64,000 nt of DNA from Eledone cirrhosa (GCA_964016885.1 OZ024740.1:96720001-96784000); one strand, 5' to 3'; positions 1 to 63,305 are shown, numbered from the stretch's first letter. The notes: generated by a model from the letters alone, not told the origin. Numbers and translations: made by a program.

Positions 1-368
1 TACTACATTGTGTTAAAGGTATATACATGTTATTAATTTAAGTATTTAATTACACAAATGTCTATATAGTTTATTATTACACATTACATTAAATGTCTCT
101 ATATATTAAATATCCATTACTTTATATAATATAATTCAGCTATACTAGTTATACCAAAAGGTGGTAACTTTATATTTAAATCTAACAGTTATTGCAGAGA
201 ACAAAACTAGAGGTGCATAGGAGTTGTGTAGAGGGAAGAGCTGATGAAAGAGTGTGTAGTTGTGGGTGCTGATAAATCTTATATGTGAAGTGTTAAAGGT
301 GGTGGAGAATTCATATCTGACATTAATATATACTAACAGCTAGGTTTAAAGTTATGGAAAGAGTGACG

Positions 369-632
369 CTATCGGTGTTTGCACGAGGAAAATGCCTCTG
401 ACTTTTTATTAAGGAGGTCTATTTTCGAAAAGATTATAGTATGGGTCTCTAGAAGACAGAGATTACACAATTTATTCGGTGGTTTATAAGATGAGGCCTT
501 ACCTACTACTTCCCATTGCAGTGTAAATGGTCTATTCCTAGTTTTCAGAGAGTGTACGTAGCTAGATAAAGAAGTGGAGTTGGCTAGATTGTGTTTCTTG
601 AAAGAGAGGAGGTTAATTACATGTACAAACAT
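369..632 (-). pseudogene. Penelope-like element GIY-YIG endonuclease C-terminal fragment
   Basis: Translation HNLANSTSLSSYVHSLK...LQWEVVGKASSY...CNLCLLETHTI...LLNKKSEAFSSCKHR matches the C-terminus of the PLE ORFs at 40547-41113 and 50005-50337. Confidence 0.85.
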
Positions 633-2099
633 TGATAATGCTCCGATGACTCCAATGAGAGTTTGGAAGAAAAGATTGTCACCAATTAAATGATTTGAAC
701 ACAGCTTTGATAATTGTATAATTTATTTATTTTCCTGCTCTGTAAAACAACTGATGTTCATTCATTGAGCTATTTCTCTTACTGGTAATAAGGTAATTGG
801 AAATGATTTACCTTCCTGTTTATTGTTGTTTATACTATATACATAGCTATAAATAGTATTATTATTATCTTTATATATATGTATCTATATATATATAGAT
901 ACATATATATGTGCGTGTGCGTATGTGCATATACGCGTGTGTGAGCGTGTGTGTGTGCGTTTATGTATGTGTGTGTCAAAACCATTCAAGGTAGAAGTTA
1001 TCAGTAACGACCGCTGCAGAATTTCTATTTAAATTTTCTCGTGAGCAGCTGAAATTCGGCGTGATTTAGTAACGTACGTTTTATTGGGTTACTGATTTAG
1101 ATATAGGTGTGGCAGTTTTAATACCAGTATTCATCCACGAATTTAATTTCTGATGTGATATTTGTTATGTAGTTTTTTGTAGTTTTATTTTTTACGTAGA
1201 TTTAGTCGAGCCTGATAAATGATCTACATATGTCGGAATCGATATCACATTTGTAATTGTTGTACGATGGCCTATGAAGTCTCGATGTATGATACTAGTA
1301 GTTTACAACATCTTTAGAGCTTTAAATTATCAATATTATTAAGATATACTTCACGAAAACCAACTACACTTCAGTTATGTTTTACTAGTTCGTGTTAGAG
1401 TATGATGACGTTTGTTTAGTTTAGATGTTCAATGAACTGAACATATTTCATGTTACATAATGCGTACGAGGTTGACTATTCCGCAGCTATGTGTACGCTT
1501 AGTGTAATCCCCCCGCTGAATTCCAATGGCACAAGATCCTACAATTATTTACCTTCCAATTATAGATATAATCCTTCCGATAGACTTCCCACCAATTTCA
1601 CTCAGGTGGTGAGGTTCGACCTGAAACTATATTAAAGACGCTTTTCGCAAAAGTCATCACAAAGGGTGATCGTACCCAGAATCAGATGATAAGTATTCGA
1701 ATTGGCGAGCATACCTATATATGACCTGCACGGTCGCTTACGTTCTACGACGGTCATATGATCAATATTAAATCTAAATACTAGTAGATTGACGTTTACT
1801 GCACTGGAAATGGATCCATTTCATTTCTGGCAATGTTCGTTTCAAGTCATTGTATACTTGTAAAGTAATTACTACTAACTACAATATATCTGCTGAATTG
1901 ATCTGGTAACAATTTATTTTCTTCAAGCGTGTATAAAACAAATATTAGGTAAGTAGGGAAGAAAATTGTCAGTCGTTAAGTGTACACATTCAAATTTCGA
2001 TATGTTTGTGATACAGATTATACATAAAATGGTAGCCGTGGTGATGAATAGGAAGATTAAGATCCTGTTATTGATGATGATGATCGTGGTAATGATCAT

Positions 2100-6225: not shown

Positions 6226-6273
<48 letters not shown>

Positions 6274-18311: not shown

Positions 18312-19030
18312 AAGGAACGCTGTACTAGTTTCAAGCTTATTAGCTATCGTCAGCGACGAATACCTTCCTGCCAGATTGTTGAACGTATATGCTTACCTAA
18401 TACGGGATGTTTGTTTACAAACACACCGAGCATTATAATAAATGTTCGGTGAATCCATACGTACATATATATATGTGTGCATGTATGTATATATATATAT
18501 ATACTACTGTACGTCTGTATACATATATGTATGTACGTGTACATGCTTATATTTAAGTAACAGCCGTACTAAGAGTGGGAAATGAAATTTCGTTTCATTT
18601 TTTTCGTTTATCGTTTTCGGTGCACCCGGCCGATTAACCCACTCGATATGCAAATTGGGCTACTCAGCCGTTAATATGCATAAGGTAAGTATATACGTTC
18701 AACAATCTGGCAGAAAGGTATACGTTGCTGATGATAGCTAATAAGCTTGAAACTTGTACAGCGTTCCTTTGTCAGTGTTGAACAAACGAGCAACGATGGT
18801 TGCTAGACACTATGGCTTAATACGGGATGTTTGTTTACAAACACACCGAGCATTATAATAAATGTTCGCTGAATCCATACGTACATATATATGTGTGTGT
18901 GCATGTGTGTATTTATATATACATAATACTGTACCTCTGTATGCATATATGTATGTACGTGTACATACTTATATTTAAGTAACAGCCGTACTAAGAGTGG
19001 GAAATGAAATTTCGTTTCATTTTTTCCGTT
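18312..19030 (+). mobile_element. Family A retrozyme-like element, diverged copy (~420 bp period, ~1.5 units, 5' inverted segment)
   Basis: tacgggatgtttgtttacaa at 18401 and 18821. Homologous to the 466 bp unit. 18312-18398 is an inverted piece containing the HHR. Ends in a TA tract. Confidence 0.85.
18722..18765 (+). ncRNA. Type I hammerhead ribozyme (family A)
   Basis: acgttg-CUGAUGA-t agc taataa gct t-GAAAC-tt-GUA-cagcgt. Stem I differs from the 44-54 kb copies (acggtg/catcgt) but still pairs. Confidence 0.8.
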
Positions 19031-28300: not shown

Positions 28301-29395
28301 AGATTTCAACGAAATTCGCTTAGTCAGTTCCCCTCTCAGCCAAAACAATGGCCCACCTATGCCCTACCAAAGTTTGCTGCTACCCATCACGACTGTGGCA
28401 GTCAGCCGAAAGCCAGAGGGGATGGGAGGGTGTTAGTTTTTATAGGTCATAATACTACCTTTCACTAAGCGTTGACGGCAAGACTGACCATCAACTCATA
28501 AGGGAAAATAGACTTAATTCTAGGTATCATGGTTTTACATTGGATGTTAAGAGTGGGAGTTGGGAATAAAAATTAAAAATTAAAATCCTAAATCAAATAT
28601 CAGAGATTATAAATTAAACAATTAAAAAATTAAAAAATTCGAAATTCAGAAATTTTTCAAGTGATAATTCGGATTGAGTAAAAATATAGATTGAAGTGAG
28701 TAAATAATATGGAGAGAGATGTTTAAGTAATAAGTTCTGAGAGGGATTCTAGTGTCACATTTACTCTATCCACATAGTGAACGACAGTGCCGTACATTAT
28801 AACGGAGGGCAAACCTACAGGCTTCAAGGCATTAGTCAATGTGACTGTGTACCAGATTGACTAATGCCTTGAACCCTGTAGGTTTGCCCTCCGTTATAAT
28901 GTACGGCACTGTCGTTCAATATGTGGTTAGAGTAAATGTGACAGTAGAATCCCTCTCAGAAATTATTACTTAAATATCTCTCTCCATATTATTTACTCAC
29001 TTCAATCTATAGTTTTACTCAATCCGAATTATCACTTGAAAAATTTCTGAATTTCGAATTTTTTAATTTTTTAATTGTTTAATTTATAATCTCTGATATT
29101 TGATTTAGGATTTTAATTTTTAATTTTTATTCCCAACTCCCACTCTTAACATCCAATGTAAAACCATGATACCTAGAATTAAGTCTATTTTCCCTTATGA
29201 GTTGATGGTCAGTCTTGCTGTCAACGCTTAGTGAAAGGTAGTATTATGACCTATAAAAACTAACACCCTCCCATCCCCTCTGGCTTTCGGCTGACTGCCA
29301 CAGTCGTGATGGGTAGCAGTAAACTTTGGTAGGGCATAGGTGGGCCATTGTTTTGGCTGAGAGGGGAACTGACTAAGCGAAGTTCGTTGAAATCT
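28301..29395. repeat. Long near-perfect inverted repeat, 540 bp arms with a 15 nt spacer
   Basis: 28301-28840 is the reverse complement of 28856-29395 with few mismatches. The left arm abuts a (TA)n tract. Confidence 0.97.
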
Positions 29396-39580: not shown

Positions 39581-40546
39581 CCTACTGGTTCCTATTACCC
39601 ACTCTACTACCCCAAGTATTGAGTACTTTGGTGCGTTATGGTCCACCTGGTTCCTTACCACATTACCTTCGTTATATAATAATATATATATATATATATA
39701 TCTCACATAGAATCTGGAGGCTATCCGCCAATGAGGATATCTTCAACCAAGCGGCTGATTACTACAATAGGCCCTGATAAGCGCCGGCTTTAACCGAGGA
39801 ATCTCCTACATCCCTAACGCTAGCTCTAGAAACCACCCGCCTCATAAAACTAACGTTATAGTAAGCCATACCTATAACCGATCACGCGGCGACCTCGTTA
39901 AAGTCGGATATAATAGAATAGATAACCGCACCAAAGATCACGTCCCCGGCGACGGTGAATACTGTAGATTACTCAAACTATTCCCCTATTACAAAACCAA
40001 CAAAGGCGACGGCCTACTACCAACGCCTTCCAACCAACATCTTCGTGTACATAAACATGGAAGTGGTAGAAAGAGTGCACCCGAGCATAAAGTGAAAGGG
40101 CACCGAACGGGCGATAGCGCATTAACACACATAAGAGCGATCACTTAGATGGAACCACCCGTAGCAAAAGTACAAGGACACGTAATCGCCACCGTAACGT
40201 CCTATGGTCCCCCCCCCTACTCTCGAAGTGTGGCCTCCAACATACCCCGGATATTCTTCGAAGCCTTAGAGAAGAACTTCCCACCCAACCATAGGTATAG
40301 AAAAATTATTAATAGAAACAATATAAAAATATCCTTCTCTACTACTCCTAACCTAGCAGACATCATAGGAACAACGAACCACAGTAAGATCACCAAGACA
40401 CAGCACCTCGACGCAGACGCACCTACACCTGACAATAACTGTACGGCCTTAACAACTCCCTGACAGCATCCAATAGTGTTGGCAACGGCATCCGCAGACG
40501 CAACCAGAATGACCGCGAAGGGACTGGGGAACATGCAGAACATGGC

Positions 40547-41113
40547 GTGCGGAATAACAATCGCACCATCCCGCGTGCTGTGGGTTGTAATTGTGCTAAC
40601 GACAGCTGCGGTAGCGCATCTAGCAACGTAGGCAGCAACAATGATAGCCTTATCGTGGGAAATAGACGGAACCGCGACAGAAATTGCAACTGCCGCGACA
40701 GAGGACGATGCCCCCTTAGAGGATACTGCTTGACCGATAGGGTTATATATAGATGCACTATTACTAGCCACAATAGCGTTAAACATTATATAGGGGCCAC
40801 CTCCGGCCCGTTCAAAATTAGGTTTCGAACACATCTCCACTCTTTCACAAATAGAAAACTAAGGCACTCCATCTCGCTCGCGGACTACATCACATCACTA
40901 AAGGACTTAAACATTAGCTTCTCCACGCACTGGGAGATTGTCGGCAGGGCTGCACCGTACAACTTCAAGAGGAAATGCGATCTTTGCCTCATGGAGCTCT
41001 ACCACATCATAACTGCACCCCACGAGCTCATCAACAGCAGAGCTGAAACAGCGATAAGTTGTACACATCGCTTAAAAATATCCTTCTTTAGATGGGTTAA
41101 GAATGAAGAGTGA
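40547..41113 (+). CDS. PLE GIY-YIG endonuclease domain (open remnant of a disrupted ORF)
   Basis: CNC...CPL.G.CL...VIYRC...YIGAT...FK.RF..H...W.I...CDLCL.E...LINSR.E...C.H. Confidence 0.9.
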   Translation: MRNNNRTIPRAVGCNCANDSCGSASSNVGSNNDSLIVGNRRNRDRNCNCRDRGRCPLRGYCLTDRVIYRCTITSHNSVKHYIGATSGPFKIRFRTHLHSFTNRKLRHSISLADYITSLKDLNISFSTHWEIVGRAAPYNFKRKCDLCLMELYHIITAPHELINSRAETAISCTHRLKISFFRWVKNEE

Positions 41114-44291: not shown

Positions 44292-44327
<36 letters not shown>

Positions 44328-44528
44328 TGAAACAAAATGAAAACGAAATTTCATTTCTCACTCTTAGTATGGCACTTACTTAAATGTAAGTATGCATGTA
44401 TACGTACATACATATATGTATACAGACGTACAGTAGCATGCACATATATATATATATATACATATATACATACATATATGTTTCAATTTATCGTTTTCGG
44501 TATGCCTGACCGATTTAACTCACTCAAT

Positions 44529-44536
44529 ATGCAAAT
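44529..44536 (+). promoter_or_regulatory. Octamer motif ATGCAAAT (one per family A unit)
   Basis: Exact motif in every unit of both arrays and conserved in the diverged copy (18648-18655). Function is inferred only. Confidence 0.45.
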
Positions 44537-44609
44537 TAGGCTGCTCAGCCGTTAATTTTCATAAGGAAAGTATATACTTTCGAACGTTCAACTATCTGGC
44601 AGATGGGTA

Positions 44610-44654
44610 AACGGTGCTGATGATAGCTAACAAGCTTGAAACTAGTACATCGTT
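44610..44654 (+). ncRNA. Minimal type I hammerhead ribozyme (family A); repeats at 45076, 45542, 46008, 46474, 46940
   Basis: aacggtg-CUGAUGA-t agc taacaa gct t-GAAAC-ta-GUA-catcgtt. Stem I is 7 bp, the core is intact, and stem III is the palindrome ACUAGU. Predicted cleavage after 44647. Confidence 0.88.
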
Positions 44655-47223
44655 CCTGTGTCAGTGTTGAACAAAAAGGTGACGTGGTTGCCTTAACACC
44701 GTATGGCATAAATTCAGGCTGTTCAGTTTGTTTACAAACGAACAAAGCGACGTTAGCGCCGCTAAACTGATACGTGCATATATGTATGTGTACCTGTATG
44801 CATATGTATGTATATATGTATATATATATATATATGTGCATGCTACTGTACGTCTGTATACATATATGTATGTACGTATACATGCATACTTACATTTAAG
44901 TAAGTGCCATACTAAGAGTGAGAAATGAAATTTCGTTTTCATTTTGTTTCAATTTATCGTTTTCGGTATGCCTGACCGATTTAACTCACTCAATATGCAA
45001 ATTAGGCTGCTCAGCCGTTAATTTTCATAAGGAAAGTATATACTTTCGAACGTTCAACTATCTGGCAGATGGGTAAACGGTGCTGATGATAGCTAACAAG
45101 CTTGAAACTAGTACATCGTTCCTGTGTCAGTGTTGAACAAAAAGGTGACGTGGTTGCCTTAACACCGTATGGCATAAATTCAGGCTGTTCAGTTTGTTTA
45201 CAAACGAACAAAGCGACGTTAGCGCCGCTAAACTGATACGTGCATATATGTATGTGTACCTGTATGCATATGTATGTATATATGTATATATATATATATA
45301 TGTGCATGCTACTGTACGTCTGTATACATATATGTATGTACGTATACATGCATACTTACATTTAAGTAAGTGCCATACTAAGAGTGAGAAATGAAATTTC
45401 GTTTTCATTTTGTTTCAATTTATCGTTTTCGGTATGCCTGACCGATTTAACTCACTCAATATGCAAATTAGGCTGCTCAGCCGTTAATTTTCATAAGGAA
45501 AGTATATACTTTCGAACGTTCAACTATCTGGCAGATGGGTAAACGGTGCTGATGATAGCTAACAAGCTTGAAACTAGTACATCGTTCCTGTGTCAGTGTT
45601 GAACAAAAAGGTGACGTGGTTGCCTTAACACCGTATGGCATAAATTCAGGCTGTTCAGTTTGTTTACAAACGAACAAAGCGACGTTAGCGCCGCTAAACT
45701 GATACGTGCATATATGTATGTGTACCTGTATGCATATGTATGTATATATGTATATATATATATATATGTGCATGCTACTGTACGTCTGTATACATATATG
45801 TATGTACGTATACATGCATACTTACATTTAAGTAAGTGCCATACTAAGAGTGAGAAATGAAATTTCGTTTTCATTTTGTTTCAATTTATCGTTTTCGGTA
45901 TGCCTGACCGATTTAACTCACTCAATATGCAAATTAGGCTGCTCAGCCGTTAATTTTCATAAGGAAAGTATATACTTTCGAACGTTCAACTATCTGGCAG
46001 ATGGGTAAACGGTGCTGATGATAGCTAACAAGCTTGAAACTAGTACATCGTTCCTGTGTCAGTGTTGAACAAAAAGGTGACGTGGTTGCCTTAACACCGT
46101 ATGGCATAAATTCAGGCTGTTCAGTTTGTTTACAAACGAACAAAGCGACGTTAGCGCCGCTAAACTGATACGTGCATATATGTATGTGTACCTGTATGCA
46201 TATGTATGTATATATGTATATATATATATATATGTGCATGCTACTGTACGTCTGTATACATATATGTATGTACGTATACATGCATACTTACATTTAAGTA
46301 AGTGCCATACTAAGAGTGAGAAATGAAATTTCGTTTTCATTTTGTTTCAATTTATCGTTTTCGGTATGCCTGACCGATTTAACTCACTCAATATGCAAAT
46401 TAGGCTGCTCAGCCGTTAATTTTCATAAGGAAAGTATATACTTTCGAACGTTCAACTATCTGGCAGATGGGTAAACGGTGCTGATGATAGCTAACAAGCT
46501 TGAAACTAGTACATCGTTCCTGTGTCAGTGTTGAACAAAAAGGTGACGTGGTTGCCTTAACACCGTATGGCATAAATTCAGGCTGTTCAGTTTGTTTACA
46601 AACGAACAAAGCGACGTTAGCGCCGCTAAACTGATACGTGCATATATGTATGTGTACCTGTATGCATATGTATGTATATATGTATATATATATATATATG
46701 TGCATGCTACTGTACGTCTGTATACATATATGTATGTACGTATACATGCATACTTACATTTAAGTAAGTGCCATACTAAGAGTGAGAAATGAAATTTCGT
46801 TTTCATTTTGTTTCAATTTATCGTTTTCGGTATGCCTGACCGATTTAACTCACTCAATATGCAAATTAGGCTGCTCAGCCGTTAATTTTCATAAGGAAAG
46901 TATATACTTTCGAACGTTCAACTATCTGGCAGATGGGTAAACGGTGCTGATGATAGCTAACAAGCTTGAAACTAGTACATCGTTCCTGTGTCAGTGTTGA
47001 ACAAAAAGGTGACGTGGTTGCCTTAACACCGTATGGCATAAATTCAGGCTGTTCAGTTTGTTTACAAACGAACAAAGCGACGTTAGCGCCGCTAAACTGA
47101 TACGTGCATATATGTATGTGTACCTGTATGCATATGTATGTATATATGTATATATATATATATATGTGCATGCTACTGTACGTCTGTATACATATATGTA
47201 TGTACGTATACATGCATACTTAC

Positions 47224-47261
<38 letters not shown>

Positions 47262-47952
47262 GGTTACACAACAGTTAGTTCACCATACCGAGAACAATTG
47301 TTTCACCTTAGCGGATCTTCAACTCGGAATGTGCATGGTTATGGGAACAGGAAGGACAACCGTACGAACACGTAAGCGCAGAAGCCCGGTCACTTCACAC
47401 AGGCCATACTAGACTGCGTGCGGGATGTGTAAGGGAGATCACTGCGAAAGTCCGGAAAGTTTTTAGGTTGAAAATAACAATAAAAAAAATAAAAGTAAAA
47501 CTACAAAGAATCAGTCTGGAGCCTTGTAGTTATGCAATAGATGTTTGGTGACATGTGGACAACGTGTGAAAAATTCACCTCTCATGTTTAGGCAATCACT
47601 ATTGCGTAATCTCATTAGGATAGTTATTCGTTCGTCAATACATAAGCCACAAGCCGGCTTATGTATTAACGAACGAATAAATATTCTAAAGAGATTACGT
47701 AATAGTGATTGCCTAAACACGAGAAGTGAATGTTTCACACGTTGTCCACACGTCGCTAAACACCTATTGCATAACTACAAAGCTCCGGACTGATTCTTTG
47801 TAATTTTATTTTCAACCTAAAAACTGTTCGGACTTTCGCAGTTATCTCCCTTACACCTCTCGCACGCAGTCTAGTATTGCCTGTGTGAAATGACTGGGTT
47901 TCTGCGCTTGGGCGTTCATACGGTTGTCCTTCCTGTTCCTATAACAAATGCC

Positions 47953-48000
47953 CATTCCGAGCTGAAGATCCGCTAAGGTGAAACAATTGTTCACGGTATG
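47953..48000 (+). ncRNA. Hammerhead ribozyme in the Penelope pLTR; also at 50485-50532 (+) and 47284-47331 (-)
   Basis: cattccgag-CUGAAGA-tccgctaaggt-GAAAC-aatt-GUU-c(a/t)cggtatg. Palindromic stem III ACAAUUGU. Confidence 0.8.
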
Positions 48001-48249
48001 GTGAACTAACTGTTGTGTAACCACTTCTACCTAACTCGTCCCTTAGACTGAGTGCTCTACCACTACGCATATTACCTTCAAGTGTTCCACCACTATTTAC
48101 GTCTCCAGCACCGGTCAGCGGATTCTCTTCACTACGTAGAAGTTTGGCTTTTAGCAGATTCTTCACCACGTGCGAGTTTGGCTTACTACTCTGAGAGCGC
48201 TCTCTATATCCTCGTGTCCTATACAATTGTGCGTCTCATCAACGTCAGT

Positions 48250-50337
48250 ATGGATTTATACGAACTGGATTACTCCCTGAAGAACATTCCAACCCCCTCC
48301 AACCATGTTTACCAAAAGCTACTCCTACAAAAAGCGGAAGATATCTTCATACGCTTAAGATGGCGAGCCCTGGCTTTCGACGGCAAAATTACAGGCACCA
48401 ACAACATCTTCAGCCTACCCTCCTAAGGTAACTGAACTTGCTCCTTTCGAGACGGACCTTCTAGACTTTGTCGCTAACATTTCCTTTCGCAAACACACTA
48501 ACACCTTTCAAACGAAACTCAGAAACGATATTAAAAATGTACGTCTTCTAATAACACCTTCGTCCTTTCCGACAAAACTAATAATATTTACGAAGTCGAC
48601 AACACCACTTTCCGCCACCTGGCCCATAACGCTAGTACTTCTAAATATAAGAAAGCTAATCCTATGGCCTACCACGACATTAATAGAGAAGCCAAGGAAC
48701 TTGCCCCAGACCTTAAATTAGATAAGAAGCTACAATCGCTAGCTAAGCGGGAGGCGTTCCTCACCCTGAAAGATCACAAGGTTGACTTTACTTCTAACCC
48801 CACATGTAGACTAATAAACCCGGTACGCACAGATATGTAATAAGTCAGTAAGGCCATACTTAGAAACATAGTTAAGACCATTAGGAACAAGTCCAACCTG
48901 CCCCAGTGGGAGAACAGCGAATCCGTAATTAAGTGGTTTAATTGCTTGAAATCCCAAAAAGCGAAGTTCTCACAGTTTGACATTGTCGATTCTTACCCAT
49001 CGATGTCAGAGACCCTGTTAAACACAGCGTTGGACTTCGCTACCACTTATACCACCGTCGATGGTTTAGACAGGGAAATCATCGCCCACTGCTGGAAAAC
49101 CATCCTCTCCAACGACCGAGTAGCCTCGGCAAAGAAGTCTACATCTTCAGACCTGTTTGACATCTCCATGGGATCGTTTGACAGTGCTATTGTATGTGAC
49201 TTGGTTGGGATTTTACTCTTAGACATATTACGTGTTATATTCCCGGACTTCAACACGGGAATATACCGTGACGATGGACTGACTTTATCGAGCCATGAAA
49301 GTGGTCACGACCTCGACCGGTTGAAAAATGACTTAGTTTCTACCTTCCATGAGTTAGGTCTTAGGATAACAGTAGCCACCAACCTCTCTTGCGTAGATTC
49401 CTTAGACATTAATTTAGACCTTCGCACACACACCCACAGACCCTTCCATAAGCTAAACGAGAAATGTAATTACATTCACAAGGCATCATGCCACCCTCCC
49501 ACTGTTTTTAGAAACGTCGTTAAGAATATCAGTACTAGAATCTCAAACGACTCCTCTAATAAGGCTCTCTTTGACAGGGCGGCACCCTACTATAACACGG
49601 CGTTAGCTAACAGCGGCGTCTCACAACCTATCATTTATTCTTCCACTAGCAACAACACCATTAAGAAAAGTAAGCGCAACAATAGACAAAGTATCTGGTT
49701 CTCTCCTCCTTTCTCACTCAACGTTAAAACCAGTGTAGGAAAAAAAATGTCTAGCCCTCTTAGATAGACAGTTCCCCATAGGTCATAAATACCGCTGCAT
49801 CTTTAACCCACACAAAGTTAAACTAAGATACTCCTGCGCTAAGAACATGAAGGCCCACATCACCAGCAGCCCTAGGAGCAATACCCCACTTGCCGTAAGC
49901 CTGAAGCTTGCTCCCTTCAACAGCAATGCAACAGAACAGCTGTAATTTATGAAGCTGTGGTCACTTCCAACCGACCAAACAAACCACATGATGTCAAATC
50001 CTAGGTGGGCATGGCGGAGGGCCAATTCAAGAAACGTTTCCTGAACCACCAGGCTACCTTCAGATACCCGGACAGACGTTTATCCACGAAACTCGCGAGC
50101 CACGTATGGTCCCTCAAGGACTCAAGTATAGACTACTCCATTCAATGGAAAGCCATCACTAAGTCCAAGCCATACGCAAGGGGAAATGCGACGTATGGTT
50201 TATGTATTGACGAACGAATAACTATTCTAAAGAGATTACGCAATAGTGATTGCCTAAACACGAGAAGTGAATTTTTCACACGTTGTCCACACGCCGCCGA
50301 ACAATTAACTACAAGGCTCCGGACTGATTCTTTGTAA
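48250..50337 (+). pseudogene. PLE polyprotein (reverse transcriptase + GIY-YIG endonuclease), disrupted by stops and frameshifts
   Basis: MDLYELDYSLKNIPTPS, RLRWRA, TLKDHK..F...P.CRLINP, QFDIVDSYPS, MGSFDSA..CDLVG, GIYRDDGL, WFSPPFS.NV.T, VGMAEGQFKKRF.NH, LCIDE...LNTRSE...CPH. Confidence 0.95.
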
Positions 50338-50622
50338 TTTTGTTTTCAACCTAAAAACTTTTCGGACGTTCGCAGGTATCTCCCTTACACCTCTCGCACG
50401 CAGTCTAGTATTGCCTGTGTGAAATGACCGGGTTTCTGCGATTGGGCGTCGGTACGGTTGTACTTCTTGTTCGTAAACCATGCCCATTCCGAACTGAAGA
50501 TCCGCTAAGGTGAAACAATTGTTCTCAGTATGGCGAACTAACTGTTGTGTAACCACTTCTAACTAACTCGTCCCTTGGACTGAGTGCTCTACCACTACGG
50601 ATATTACCTTCCAGTGTTCCTC

Positions 50623-50658
<36 letters not shown>

Positions 50659-50661
<3 letters not shown>

Positions 50662-50852
50662 TTGAAAAACATGAAAACGAAATTTCATTTCTCACTCTTA
50701 GTATGGCACTTACTTACACGTGGTTGCCTTAACACCGTATGGCATAAATTCAGGCTGTTCGCTTTGTTGACAAACAAACGAACAAAGCGGTCGGCGTTAT
50801 AATAAACGTAGGCTAATCTGATGCGTGCATATATGTATGTGTACCTGTATGC

Positions 50853-50905
<53 letters not shown>

Positions 50906-51345
50906 TGCTACTATACGTCTGTATACATATATGTATGTACGTATACATACATACTTACATTTAAGTAAGTGCCATACTAAGAGTGAGAAATGAAATTTCG
51001 TTTTTATTTATTTCAACTTATCGTTTTCGGTATGCCTGACCGATTTAACTCACTCAATATGCAAATTAGGCTGCTCAGCCGTTAATTTTCATAAGGAAAG
51101 TATATATTTTCGAACGTCAACTATCTGGCAGATGGGTAAACGGTGCTGATGATAGCTAACAAGCTTGAAACTAGTACATCGTTCCTGTGTCAGTGTTGAA
51201 CAAAAAGGTGACGTGGTTGCCTTAACACCGTATGGCATAAATTCAGGCTGTTCGCTTTGTTGACAAACAAACGAACAAAGCGGCCGGCGTTATAATAAAC
51301 GTAGGCTAAACTGATGCGTGCATATATGTATGTGTACCTGTATGC

Positions 51346-51437
<92 letters not shown>

Positions 51438-53753
51438 GCTACTGTACGTCTGTATACATATATGTATGTACGTATACATACATACTTACATTTAAGTAAG
51501 TGCCATACTAAGAGCGAGAAATGAAATTTCGTTTTCATTTTTTTCAGCTTATCGTTTTCGGTATGCCTGACCGATTTAACTCACTCAATATGCAAATTAG
51601 GCTGCTCAGCCGTTAATTTTCATAAGGAAAGGATATACTTTCGAACGTTCAACTATCTGGCAGATGGGTAAACGGTGCTGATGATAGCTAACAAGCTTGA
51701 AACTAGTACATCGTTCCTGTGTCAGTGTTGAACAAAAAGGTGACGTGGTTGCCTTAACACCGTATGGCATAAATTCAGGCTGTTCGCTTTGTTGACAAAC
51801 AAACGAACAAAGCGGCCGGCGTTATAATAAACGTAGGCTAAACTGATGCGTGCATATATGTATGTGTACCTGTATGCATATGTGTATATATATATATATA
51901 TATGCATGCTACTGTACGTCTGTATACATATATGTATGTACGTATACATACATACTTACATTTAAGTAAGTGCCATACTAAGAGTGAGAAATGAAATTTC
52001 GTTTTCATGTTTTTCAACTTATCGTTTTCGGTATGCCTGACCGATTTAACTCACTCAATATGCAAATTAGGCTGCTCAGCCGTTAATTTTCAAAGGAAAG
52101 TATATACTTTCGAACGTTCAACTATCTGGCAGATGGGTAAACGGTGCTGATGATAGCTAACAAGCTTGAAACTAGTACATCGTTCCTGTGTCAGTGTTGA
52201 ACAAAAAGGTGACGTGGTTGCCTTAACACCGTATGGCATAAATTCAGGCTGTTCGCTTTGTTGACAAACAAACGAACAAAGCGGCCGGCGTTATAATAAA
52301 CGTAGGCTAAACTGATGCGTACATATATGTATGTGTACCTGTATGCATATGTTTATATATATATATATATATGCATGCTACTGTACGTTTGTGTACATAT
52401 ATGTATGTACGTATACATACATACTTACATTTAAGTAAGTGCCATACTAAGAGTGAGAAATGAAATTTCGTTTTCATTTTTTTCAACTTATCGTTTTCGG
52501 TATGCCTGACCGATTTAACTCACTCAATATGCAAATTAGGCTGCTCAGCCGTTAATTTTCAAAGGAAAGTATATACTTTCGAACGTTCAACTATCTGGCA
52601 GATGGGTAAACGGTGCTGATGATAGCTAACAAGCTTGAAACTAGTACATCGTTCCTGTGTCAGTGTTGAACAAAAAGGTGACGTGGTTGCCTTAACACCG
52701 TATGGCATAAATTCAGGCTGTTCGCTTTGTTGACAAACAAACGAACAAAGCGGCCGGCGTTATAATAAACGTAGGCTAAACTGATGCGTGCATATATGTA
52801 TGTGTACCTGTATGCATATGTGTATATATATATATATATATGCATGCTACTGTACGTCTGTATACATATATGTATGTACGTATACATACATACTTACATT
52901 TAAGTAAGTGCCATACTAAGAGTGAGAAATGAAATTTCGTTTTCATGTTTTTCAACTTATCGTTTTCGGTATGCCTGACCGATTTAACTCACTCAATATG
53001 CAAATTAGGCTGCTCAGCCGTTAATTTTCAAAGGAAAGTATATACTTTCGAACGTTCAACTATCTGGCAGATGGGTAAACGGTGCTGATGATAGCTAACA
53101 AGCTTGAAACTAGTACATCGTTCCTGTGTCAGTGTTGAACAAAAAGGTGACGTGTTTGCCTTAACACCGTATGGCATAAATTCAGGCTGTTCGCTTTGTT
53201 GACAAACAAACGAACAAAGCGGCCGGCGTTATAATAAACGTAGGCTAAACTGATGCGTGCATATATGTATGTGTACCTGTATGCATATGTGTATATATAT
53301 ATATATATATGCATGCTACTGTACGTCTGTATACATATATGTATGTACGTATACATACTTACTTACATTTAAGTAAGTGCCATACTAAGAGTGAGAAATG
53401 AAATTTCGTTTTCATTTTTTTCAACTTATCGTTTTCGGTATGCCTGACCGATTTAACTCACTCAATATGCAAATTAGGCTGCTCAGCCGTTAATTTTCAA
53501 AGGAAAGTATATACTTTCGAACGTTCAACTATCTGGCAGATGGGTAAACGGTGCTGATGATAGCTAACAAGCTTGAAACTAGTACATCGTTCCTGTGTCA
53601 GTGTTGAACAAAAAGGTGACGTGGTTGCCTTAACAACGTATGGCATAAATTCAGGCTGTTCGCTTTGTTGACAAACAAACGAACAAAGCGGCCGGCGTTA
53701 TAATAAACGTAGGCTAAACTGATGCGTGCATATATGTATGTGTACCTGTATGC

Positions 53754-53812
<59 letters not shown>

Positions 53813-54330
53813 TGCTACTGTACGTCTGTATACATATATGTATGTACGTATACATACATACTTACATTTAAGTAAGTGCCATACTAAGAGTGAGAAATGA
53901 AATTTCGTTTTCATTTTTTTCATCTTATCGTTTTCGGTATGCCTGACCGATTTAACTCACTCAATATGCAAATTAGGCTGCTCAGCCGTTAATTTTCATA
54001 AGGAAAGTATATACTTTCGAACGTTCAACTATCTGGCAGATGGGTAAACGGTGCTGATGATAGCTAACAAGCTTGAAACTAGTACATCGTTCCTGTGTCA
54101 GTGTTGACCAAAAAGGTGACGTGGTTGCCTTAACACCGTATGGCATAAATTCAGGCTGTTCGCTTTGTCGACAAACAAACGAACAAAGCGGCCGGCGTTA
54201 TAATAAACGTAGGCTAAACTGATGCGTGCATATATGTATGTGTACCTGTATGCATATGTGTATATATATATATATATGCATGCTACTGTACGTCTGTATA
54301 CATATATGTATGTACGTATACATACATACT

Positions 54331-54335
<5 letters not shown>
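50659..54335 (+). mobile_element. Family A retrozyme-like tandem array 2: ~7.5 units of mostly 469 bp preceded by a ~58 bp inverted segment
   Basis: HHR copies at 51139, 51671, 52140, 52609, 53078, 53547, 54047. Spacings are 532, 469, 469, 469, 469, 500, with the variation coming from the internal TA tract. Distinct subfamily segment cgctttgttgacaaacaaacgaacaaagcggccggcg. Confidence 0.93.
51139..51183 (+). ncRNA. Minimal type I hammerhead ribozyme (family A), first of seven in array 2
   Basis: Same sequence as 44610-44654. Confidence 0.88.
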
Positions 54336-54422
<87 letters not shown>

Positions 54423-61228: not shown

Positions 61229-61407
61229 TATATATATCAAGTAAGTATGTTTTAAAATAGTGACTAGGTTTGAAATTAGAAAATAGAATAGCTTTCACCG
61301 AGTTTTTGACTAAAGGAATTTTAGCCTGATAATGGGGTTTAGAACACTTAGATAAATGGAAAAAGATGAGTATTGACGTACATGGGACATTATATATATA
61401 TATATAA

Positions 61408-63305
61408 GCAGTAACACAATAGTTAGTTCACCATACATAGGACAATTGTTTCACCTTGCGGATCTTCAGCTTCGATTGAGCGTGGTTGAACGGAAAAGGA
61501 AAAACAACTGTATGAGTATGTACGCGCAGACGGTCACTTCTCCCAGGCGATAAACTGCCACGGTCGAAAGGTGTAAGGAAGATAACTGCGAATGTCCGGA
61601 ATAAATTATTCGAGTTGATTAGAATATTAGAATGTTTATGTTATTCAATCCGGAGTTTTTATTTATGCAAGAGGTGTTTCCAGACGTGTGGACAACGTGA
61701 GAACTCCTCATATCTTGAATTTCGGCAATCGCTATTGCGTAATAACCTCAGAATATTGATCCTTTCCTCAATACACAGTGCACAAGATGGATTACCCCTT
61801 CCATATTGGTTGGAATTAGTGATAGCTTTCCATTGGATGGAGTAATCTAGATCCTGACTTGTTGAAGGACCATGCGTGGCTCGGGTGTTTCGTGGACAAT
61901 CGTTTTCCGGGTATTTAAATGTCGACTGATGGTTCAGGAAGCTTTCCTTAAACCGGCCCTACACCATACCTACATAGGATTTAACACTTGTTGATTAGGT
62001 CGTTTGGAAGTGACGACAGCTTCTTAAACTCCAGCGGGTGTGTTGCATTGTTCTTGAAGGGGACAATCTTCAGGCGTTCGGCAAGAGCATCCTTGTGGGG
62101 TGCTGCCTTTAGGGTTTTTGGTGATGTGGACCTTCATATTCTAGGCGCAGGAGTATCGTAGTTTTACCCTGTGTCTGAAACAAATGGAGCAGTATTGGTG
62201 ACTTATGGGAAAGTGAGCTAAACATTTTTTCCTACATTAGATTTAACGTTGAGGGAGAATGGGGCAGAGAACAAAATAGTTTTTCTATTGGTACGATTTC
62301 TTTTCTTATTGCTGTTGTTGTTAGCGGGGGAGTAAGTAATTGGTTGCGAGAGGCCGCTGTTAGCTAACGGCGCGTTATAGTAAGGGTTCGCTCTGTCAAA
62401 GATTCCTTTATTAGAGGAGAGGTTTGAGATTCAGTAACGATATTATTCACAAAGTTTCTAAAACCAGTAGGAGGGTAGAATCTGTACTTGTGTATGTAAT
62501 TAAGTTTTCCATTAAGGTCATGGAAACGTCTGAAGGTTTGTGTGTGCGAAGGTCTAAATTTATGTCTAGGTAATCTACTCTAGAGAAGTTGGTAGATACC
62601 ATTATCCTAAGTCCTAACTCATTAAAAGTAGAAATCAAATCTGTTTTAAATCGGTCCTGGTCATGACTACTTTTATAGCTCGATAGGGTCAGACCATCGT
62701 CGCGGTATAATCGCGTGTGGAAGTCCGGGAATCTAGTACGTAATATATCTAAAATAAATAAGCCAACCAAGTCGCTTACGGCAGCACCATCGAACTATCC
62801 CTTCGAAACGTCGAATAGTTCTAAAGTAGATGATTTCTTTGTCCAGGCTACTCCGTTGTTGAGGAGGAGGTTTTTCCAGAAGTCTGTGAGGATATCTCTG
62901 TCTAAATCATGGACGGTAGTGTAAGTGGTAGCAAAGTCCAGCACTTTGACAAACTGGTTCACTGAGATCGATGGGCAAAAATCCACAATTTCGAATTGCG
63001 TGAACTTCCCTTTTTTGGAGTTGAAGGAGTTAAACCACTTAATGACGGTGTCGCTGTTCTCCCACTGGGACAGGATGGACTTGGTCCTAATGGTCTTAAC
63101 TATTTTCCTAATTATAGCCTTACTGACTAGTCCCATTTCCGTGCGTGCCGGGTTTAGTAGTCTAAACTTGGGATTAGAAGCAAATTCTATGTTGTTATCC
63201 TTCAGGGTGAGAAACGCCTCCCGCTTAGCTAAGCATTGTAACTTCTACTCCAACTTAAGAGCAGCAGCAAGGTATGTGGCTTCTGTATTGATGTTGTGTA
63301 GGCAT
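61408..63305 (-). mobile_element. 5'-truncated, decayed Penelope-like element related to 47261-50627
   Basis: Minus-strand QWENSDTVIKWFN, QFEIVDFCPSIS, LYRDDGL, DYLDINLDL. The 3' pLTR carries the HHR gaag-CUGAAGA-tccgcaaggt-GAAAC-aatt-GUC at ~61432-61478. Ends at a TA tract. Confidence 0.93.

Follow-up and report, generated by a model that had tools for sequence, protein, structure and literature searches.

A window of 64,000 nucleotides (nt) from the genome of Eledone cirrhosa (GCA_964016885.1 OZ024740.1:96720001-96784000) was analysed, and the part of it treated here, positions 44,292 to 54,335, contains two tandem arrays of a non-coding unit of 466-469 base pairs (bp), with a Penelope-like element (PLE) between them. 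Every unit carries one hammerhead ribozyme motif, and the unit appears to be a retrozyme, a non-autonomous element that very probably moves by means of PLE machinery. The two arrays and the PLE were inserted independently of one another, as three insertions into (TA)n runs. The features are listed below with window positions and, in brackets, strands.

44295-44324: (TA)n run, left target of array 1
44325-44478 (-): inverted arm of array 1, 154 nt, 5'-truncated, ending at the far ("tail," T) site
44480-47228 (+): main arm of array 1, 5.9 identical 466-bp units (subfamily A) with six hammerheads, ending at the near (S) site
44529-44536 (+): octamer motif in a 30-nt block that is identical in the old and young subfamilies
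44610-44654 (+): first minimal type I hammerhead, predicted cut after 44647
47227-47258: (TA)n run separating array 1 from the PLE
47259-47649 (-): inverted arm of the Hydra-clade PLE (family H1), ending at its own S site; hammerhead core altered
47656-50625 (+): main arm of the Hydra-clade PLE, ending at its own T site
47656-48094 and 50197-50625: direct pseudo-long terminal repeats (pLTRs) of the PLE, with hammerheads at 47962 and 50494
47322 (-), 47962 (+) and 50494 (+): PLE hammerheads
50626-50659: (TA)n run separating the PLE from array 2
50660-50716 (-): inverted arm of array 2, 57 nt, tail only, ending at the T site
50718-54335 (+): main arm of array 2, about 7.5 units of ~469 bp (subfamily B) with seven hammerheads, ending at the S site
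54335-54420: (TA)n run, right target of array 2
18313-19025 (+): older-subfamily copy with an inverted piece at 18313-18386 and hammerheads at 18353 (-) and 18728 (+)

Both arrays follow one plan, in which a short inverted arm of the array's own sequence precedes the main arm and (TA)n lies at both ends. The PLE between them is built in the same way, with its own pLTRs and its own, different hammerheads. Array 1 belongs to subfamily A and array 2 to subfamily B, and the TA runs divide the region into three complete pairs of S and T ends. Array 1 has a period of 466 with 5.9 copies and 100% matches. In array 2, the distances from cut to cut are 532, 469, 469, 469, 469, and 500, the two longer ones being due to longer internal TA runs; a 1-nt deletion is common to four adjacent units, and there is an alternating variant as well. 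Retrozyme sequence lies within about 3.5 kb of only 2 of 40 H1 loci, and the array-PLE-array arrangement is therefore a pile-up in a TA hot spot. The preliminary description of this DNA had the arrays flanking a Penelope element as one system, which the different subfamilies, the intervening TA runs, the separate end pairs and the rarity of the arrangement at H1 loci contradict.

The evidence for mobilisation by a PLE comes from the ends of the insertions. The retrozyme sample comprised 68 loci (53 from the first 100 core matches, 13 from subfamily A marker matches, and the two window arrays), and the controls were the Hydra PLE families H1, H2, and H3, with 40, 40, and 47 loci. Across the 68 retrozyme loci, the outer ends fall at two fixed sites, S and T, which are 58-59 nt apart and are followed by (TA)n. 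Many insertions consist of two opposed 5'-truncated arms, and all 34 of the 34 divergent end pairs combine one S with one T, where half would be expected at random; 24 odd ends, mostly opposite-strand matches of a palindromic motif or locus edges, were excluded from the pairs. The PLE controls obey the same rule in 55 of 56 pairs (H1 11/11, H2 19/20, H3 25/25). The end patterns behind these final counts were adjusted after a first pass, in which the retrozyme, H1, H2, and H3 gave 34/34, 9/10, 17/18, and 3/3. Where the arms meet, 23 of 42 inversion junctions overlap by 1-3 nt. The inverted 5'-truncated arm seen at these 42 junctions and the tail found at one end only in the 34 pairs make up the anatomy of a PLE insertion, for which a tail at one end is on record in the account of PMC8557442. 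According to the experiments described in PMC11167929, the PLE protein cuts and extends both DNA strands, and its reverse transcription (RT) begins at two places inside the RNA, which mark out the tail; this accounts for the tail rule. Since the S/T footprint matches that rule, PLE mobilisation of the retrozyme is well supported and very probable. The borrowing of PLE machinery proposed in the preliminary description is thus upheld by the footprint, and also by the PLE-retrozyme chimeras discussed below.

The unit itself has the features of a hammerhead-bearing RNA. The 13 identical motifs that had been described are present on the plus strand, one per unit, with six in array 1 (core starts 44617-46947) and seven in array 2 (51146-54054). 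Stem I comprises 7 bp, stem II 4 bp resting on a U.U pair, and stem III a palindrome of 2 bp, with GUA as the triplet; the conserved core, both stems I and II, the palindromic stem III and the NUH triplet of a minimal type I hammerhead are all there. In the predicted fold of the monomer, stems I and II form and stem III does not, and motifs of this sort are expected to work as dimers in the treatment given by PMC4209133. Self-cleavage is predicted from this anatomy and from covariation. The comparison with Rfam hammerhead models that had been suggested weighs against the assignment: the HH9 model does align over the motif, at 18.5 bits against a cut-off of 52 (E 0.023) and hence far under the gathering threshold, and no hammerhead family was among the best 150 of 255 Rfam matches in the window. 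The whole unit folds well (z -7.8), chiefly through a TA-rich hairpin. As had been stated, there is no credible open reading frame (ORF): array 1 has only low-complexity stop-to-stop frames of 114-120 amino acids (aa), and no stop-to-stop frame of at least 100 aa lies wholly inside array 2. The octamer is a possible internal promoter.

The family is large and dispersed. The exact 32-nt ribozyme core has 10,672 matches in the genome, the core of the older subfamily 12,153, and the subfamily A marker 4,393, with 0 matches for the reversed control of each, so the abundance of the core is far beyond chance. The genome-wide check of the unit that the preliminary description called for thus reveals a multicopy family with neither long terminal repeat (LTR) architecture nor ORF. 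The diverged copy that it placed at 18.3-19.0 kb is confirmed, at 75% over 464 nt, and carries a hammerhead on each strand; the plus-strand one retains the pairing of stem I and lacks the stem III palindrome. Old and young subfamilies differ in 49 of 322 columns, and five differences fall in the 45-nt hammerhead, at N7, in loop II, at the outer end of stem I, and in a two-sided swap of G.U to U.G. The places where these changes fall suggest that the hammerhead is under selection across subfamilies. The old-subfamily loci were chosen by their hammerhead pattern, which inflates the conservation of the core and counts against this conclusion, so the excess conservation foreseen earlier is suggestive only.

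Which enzyme acts on the retrozyme can be approached through the PLEs of the same genome. The neighbour in the window (H1) has a reverse transcriptase and then a GIY-YIG frame, interrupted by stops and frameshifts. It fits the Hydra clade as the elements are defined in PMC8557442, being short, with the reverse transcriptase followed by a C-terminal endonuclease, RWK-like and DKT motifs, a hammerhead and a (TA)n target, and it shows 34% identity over 697 aa to a full-length relative. The CxCX5C linker is damaged in this PLE at 47-50 kb and intact in a relative at 61-63 kb. No Pfam family exceeded the cut-off in seven window frames, and RVT_1 alone did so in one of four relatives. The family seen in the chimeras, H3, is not that of the neighbour. 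At two loci (L044 and L047), the unit is fused without a TA run to H3 coding sequence; in both, one partner contributes an S end and the other a T end, and the L047 junction occurs a single time in the genome. Template switching is the likely cause. Taken together with the footprint, these fusions make a Hydra-clade enzyme the probable one. Several points weigh against it. Chimeras with H3 were found in just 2 of 66 retrozyme-selected loci and in 0 of 47 further H3 loci; deletion between neighbouring insertions is an alternative source of fusions that would look the same; and (TA)n-targeting Naiad PLEs are recorded for cephalopods, while the PLE comparison here covered Hydra families. Further loci of H1 (0/40) and H2 (0/40) likewise had no retrozyme fusions, and no enrichment of chimeras was seen in the H3-selected loci. 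The unit had no significant match to four Hydra PLE copies, and no autonomous parent frame lies upstream of the unit in 114 loci.

Other PLE material was noted along the way. Mixing also occurs among PLE families, as at L061:4440-4730, where an H2 terminal piece is directly joined to a truncated H3 copy. In the window, a second, older Hydra-clade PLE lies at 61403-63303 (-); it is 75% identical to the PLE at 47-50 kb, has its own hammerhead at 61469, and has one end in a TA run. Hydra-like endonuclease coding fragments are present at 40175-41080 (+) and 339-665 (-). Family H2 (L033 and relatives), with 2,796 exact marker matches, has an altered start of the hammerhead core in the copies read. 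At L034:2530-2610 and 6230-6270, a 29-nt stretch of coding sequence from the neighbouring PLE recurs in inverted form between TA runs, flanking the insertion.

The nature of the template is the next question, and the arrays themselves hold some of the answer. None of 84 arm starts lies within 8 nt of the hammerhead cut (about three expected if starts were uniform), and the junctions across the cut are free of indels in 192 cases, with seven showing one substitution. The template was therefore continuous at that point, either as a circle or as an uncut multimer. Between these two, repeat lengths that are specific to an insertion are informative. At one locus (L120), units of 476 nt with identical private changes make up 6 of 6 on both arms; at another (L119), 468-nt units make up 6 of 7, again on both arms. 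Fixed variants private to a locus within the sample were present on both arms in 6 of 10 cases; a variant at L034, first taken as private, turned out to belong to a 40-copy lineage. In one variant lineage, the period differs between arrays and is uniform inside each (495-496 on C13, 502-506 on C21). Since both arms share insertion-specific repeat lengths, a circular monomer is favoured, and we consider it somewhat better than an even chance that the template was a circular RNA of unit length.

On this reading, each array would be one insertion of a non-coding, non-autonomous retrozyme with PLE-like ends, made by a Hydra-clade enzyme through RT around a circular unit-length RNA, an account that we hold to be somewhat likelier than not. 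Tandem copies would be transcribed, the hammerheads in the transcripts would cut as dimers, and the cut monomers would be ligated into circles. A PLE protein dimer would then cut both strands of a TA run, two reverse transcriptions would start inside the RNA, at S and at T, each with a variable number of turns, and the two complementary DNA (cDNA) ends would be joined through microhomology. A fuller version is offered tentatively, at slightly less than even odds: twin-primed rolling RT, in which a Hydra PLE dimer makes two cDNAs from the S and T sites of a single ribozyme-made circle unrelated to the PLE, with up to 15 turns, occasional switching between circle and PLE RNA, and part-shared variants arising as miscopying of one template base in some of the turns.

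Such variants are among the observations that tell against the circle. A rare variant of array 2, with three of its four genome-wide copies in that array, occupies only some of the units, and does so on both arms; the same holds for a rare variant at L117 (3 of 20 copies there). One perfect monomer circle does not yield variants shared by only part of the units; a mixed template, miscopying or subsequent conversion would be required for them. In the in vitro work on the anole PLE reported in PMC11167929, hammerhead mutants left insertion unaffected and the main substrate was unprocessed RNA. Outside the hairpin, there is no editing-like skew of A>G over T>C changes (28 vs 23); several array-wide A>G changes, uncounted, are visible.

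The strongest rival draws on the same facts: the PLE would insert copies of a multimeric transcript that comes from an array already in the genome and stays uncut, with the hammerhead slow or acting at a different stage and no circle involved. The anole substrate is in its favour, the absence of arm starts at the cut suits it equally well, and the predicted monomer fold has no stem III. At L117, a three-unit order (8-nt deletion, plain, C>T) is repeated identically on both arms, and 8 of 9 dimers remained uncleaved in the part of the 2026 preprint that deals with them (10.64898/2026.07.22.740005). Yet no source array with the mosaics of array 2 or L117 exists in this assembly, truncating copies cannot lengthen arrays whereas arms reach 15 units, every array has its own uniform period, and the ribozyme is conserved across subfamilies, so that we regard this explanation as rather unlikely. 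Less probable again, and indeed improbable, is that a PLE inserts short copies and that long arrays grow later by DNA-level duplication and gene conversion, like the birth of a satellite, a route put forward in the account of the same preprint. The four adjacent units with a 1-nt deletion and the alternating variant of array 2 do resemble dimer duplication, but both arms are often multi-unit with a common private length and common changes, and array 1 is 100% identical with its PLE ends intact. It is scarcely credible that PLE and arrays belong together as a composite element whose terminal repeats are the units: in its favour is their adjacency on the same strand, and against it are three complete S+T pairs divided by TA runs, different subfamilies to the left and right, a unit near only 2 of 40 H1 loci, and the lack of homology of the unit to the PLE copies.

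Earlier publications, PMC7229834 included, cover non-LTR retrozymes and the circles that they form and name PLEs as candidate drivers, and the class to which the unit was provisionally assigned is thus a described one (also in 10.64898/2026.07.22.740005); the retrozyme anatomy proposed for it is supported. The metazoan non-LTR retrozymes presented by Cervera and de la Pena (2020, PMC7229834) resemble this family in several ways: their tandem units are non-coding, low in GC, self-paired in their fold and present in thousands of copies, each has a single type I hammerhead, LTR features are absent, and HHR_Amex2 of the axolotl has the same U.U at the base of stem II. Their units are given as 170-400 nt long, compared with 466-469 nt here, and the inverted arms, fixed tail and (TA)n targeting of the present family are not described in that paper's account of them. 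Circles have been demonstrated for the metazoan retrozymes, whereas this family is known here from DNA. Dependence on PLEs is common to this family and to the account of non-LTR retrozymes as non-autonomous PLE derivatives by Li, Clavereau, and Pollet (2026), which, as the preprint presents it, is based on co-occurrence and pLTR homology in Xenopus; here, the basis is the insertion footprint and the chimeras. The pLTR homology expected of a PLE-derived retrozyme was not found, the unit matching none of the four Hydra copies.

The Hydra-clade PLEs surveyed by Craig et al. (2021, PMC8557442) share with this family the (TA)n targeting, the inverted 5'-truncated copy, the tail at one end, and the hammerheads, and multicopy head-to-tail copies are known among non-autonomous Chlamys elements such as MRC1. 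Compared with the elements as described there, this unit is without an ORF and has a tail of about 59 nt rather than 30-40, and no 3' similarity to an autonomous family was found, unlike for the non-autonomous elements of that survey. In the unit, the distance from the hammerhead cut to the S site that follows it is about 246 nt; in the neighbouring PLE, it is a few tens of nt. The Poseidon PLE of Anolis, in the in vitro results of Frangieh et al. (2024, PMC11167929), likewise uses two internal RT starts that bound the tail, has both strands cut and extended, and has an AT-rich target; unlike the system here, it is autonomous, with hammerhead cleavage that is dispensable and protein-assisted. 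A literature search that took in these papers without the supplements of PMC7229834 and 10.64898/2026.07.22.740005 found no description of this family or of this footprint for retrozymes. The known class gains a new family of non-LTR retrozymes, and this analysis adds counts for the S/T rule, set beside PLE controls, together with the fusions to H3, the finding that no arm starts at the cut, and the mosaics, which constrain the circle model.

The return of animal retrozymes into the genome has been proposed in the literature consulted, where it is not demonstrated. With its fixed start sites for RT, its defined target, its very young copies and H3 as a candidate enzyme family, the present family allows circle and uncut multimer to be tested against each other directly in vitro. 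A reverse transcriptase capable of writing an unrelated small RNA into TA repeats, starting inside that RNA, would, if true, be of interest for genome writing.

The unit was also met in other data. A contig check for it covered four runs. Two runs under other organism labels (X4 and X5) each hold one near-identical unit (99.7-100%) at a depth of 7-10, against 10^5-10^6 in X1, and these are probably cross-contamination and not transfer. In run X6, of a library type that was not identified, depth peaks over the hammerhead. In the window, a near-perfect 124-nt inverted repeat at 28786-28910, with an Rfam match under the cut-off, is probably a miniature inverted-repeat transposable element (MITE). 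The studied family is adjoined at L034:6500-8550 by a further tandem array of hammerheads, which has a period of 310 nt and an inverted copy. Near TA runs at L036, L037, L040-L042, L050, L052, L055, L063-L069, L074, and L080, at least six more families of hammerhead-like motifs are found repeatedly.

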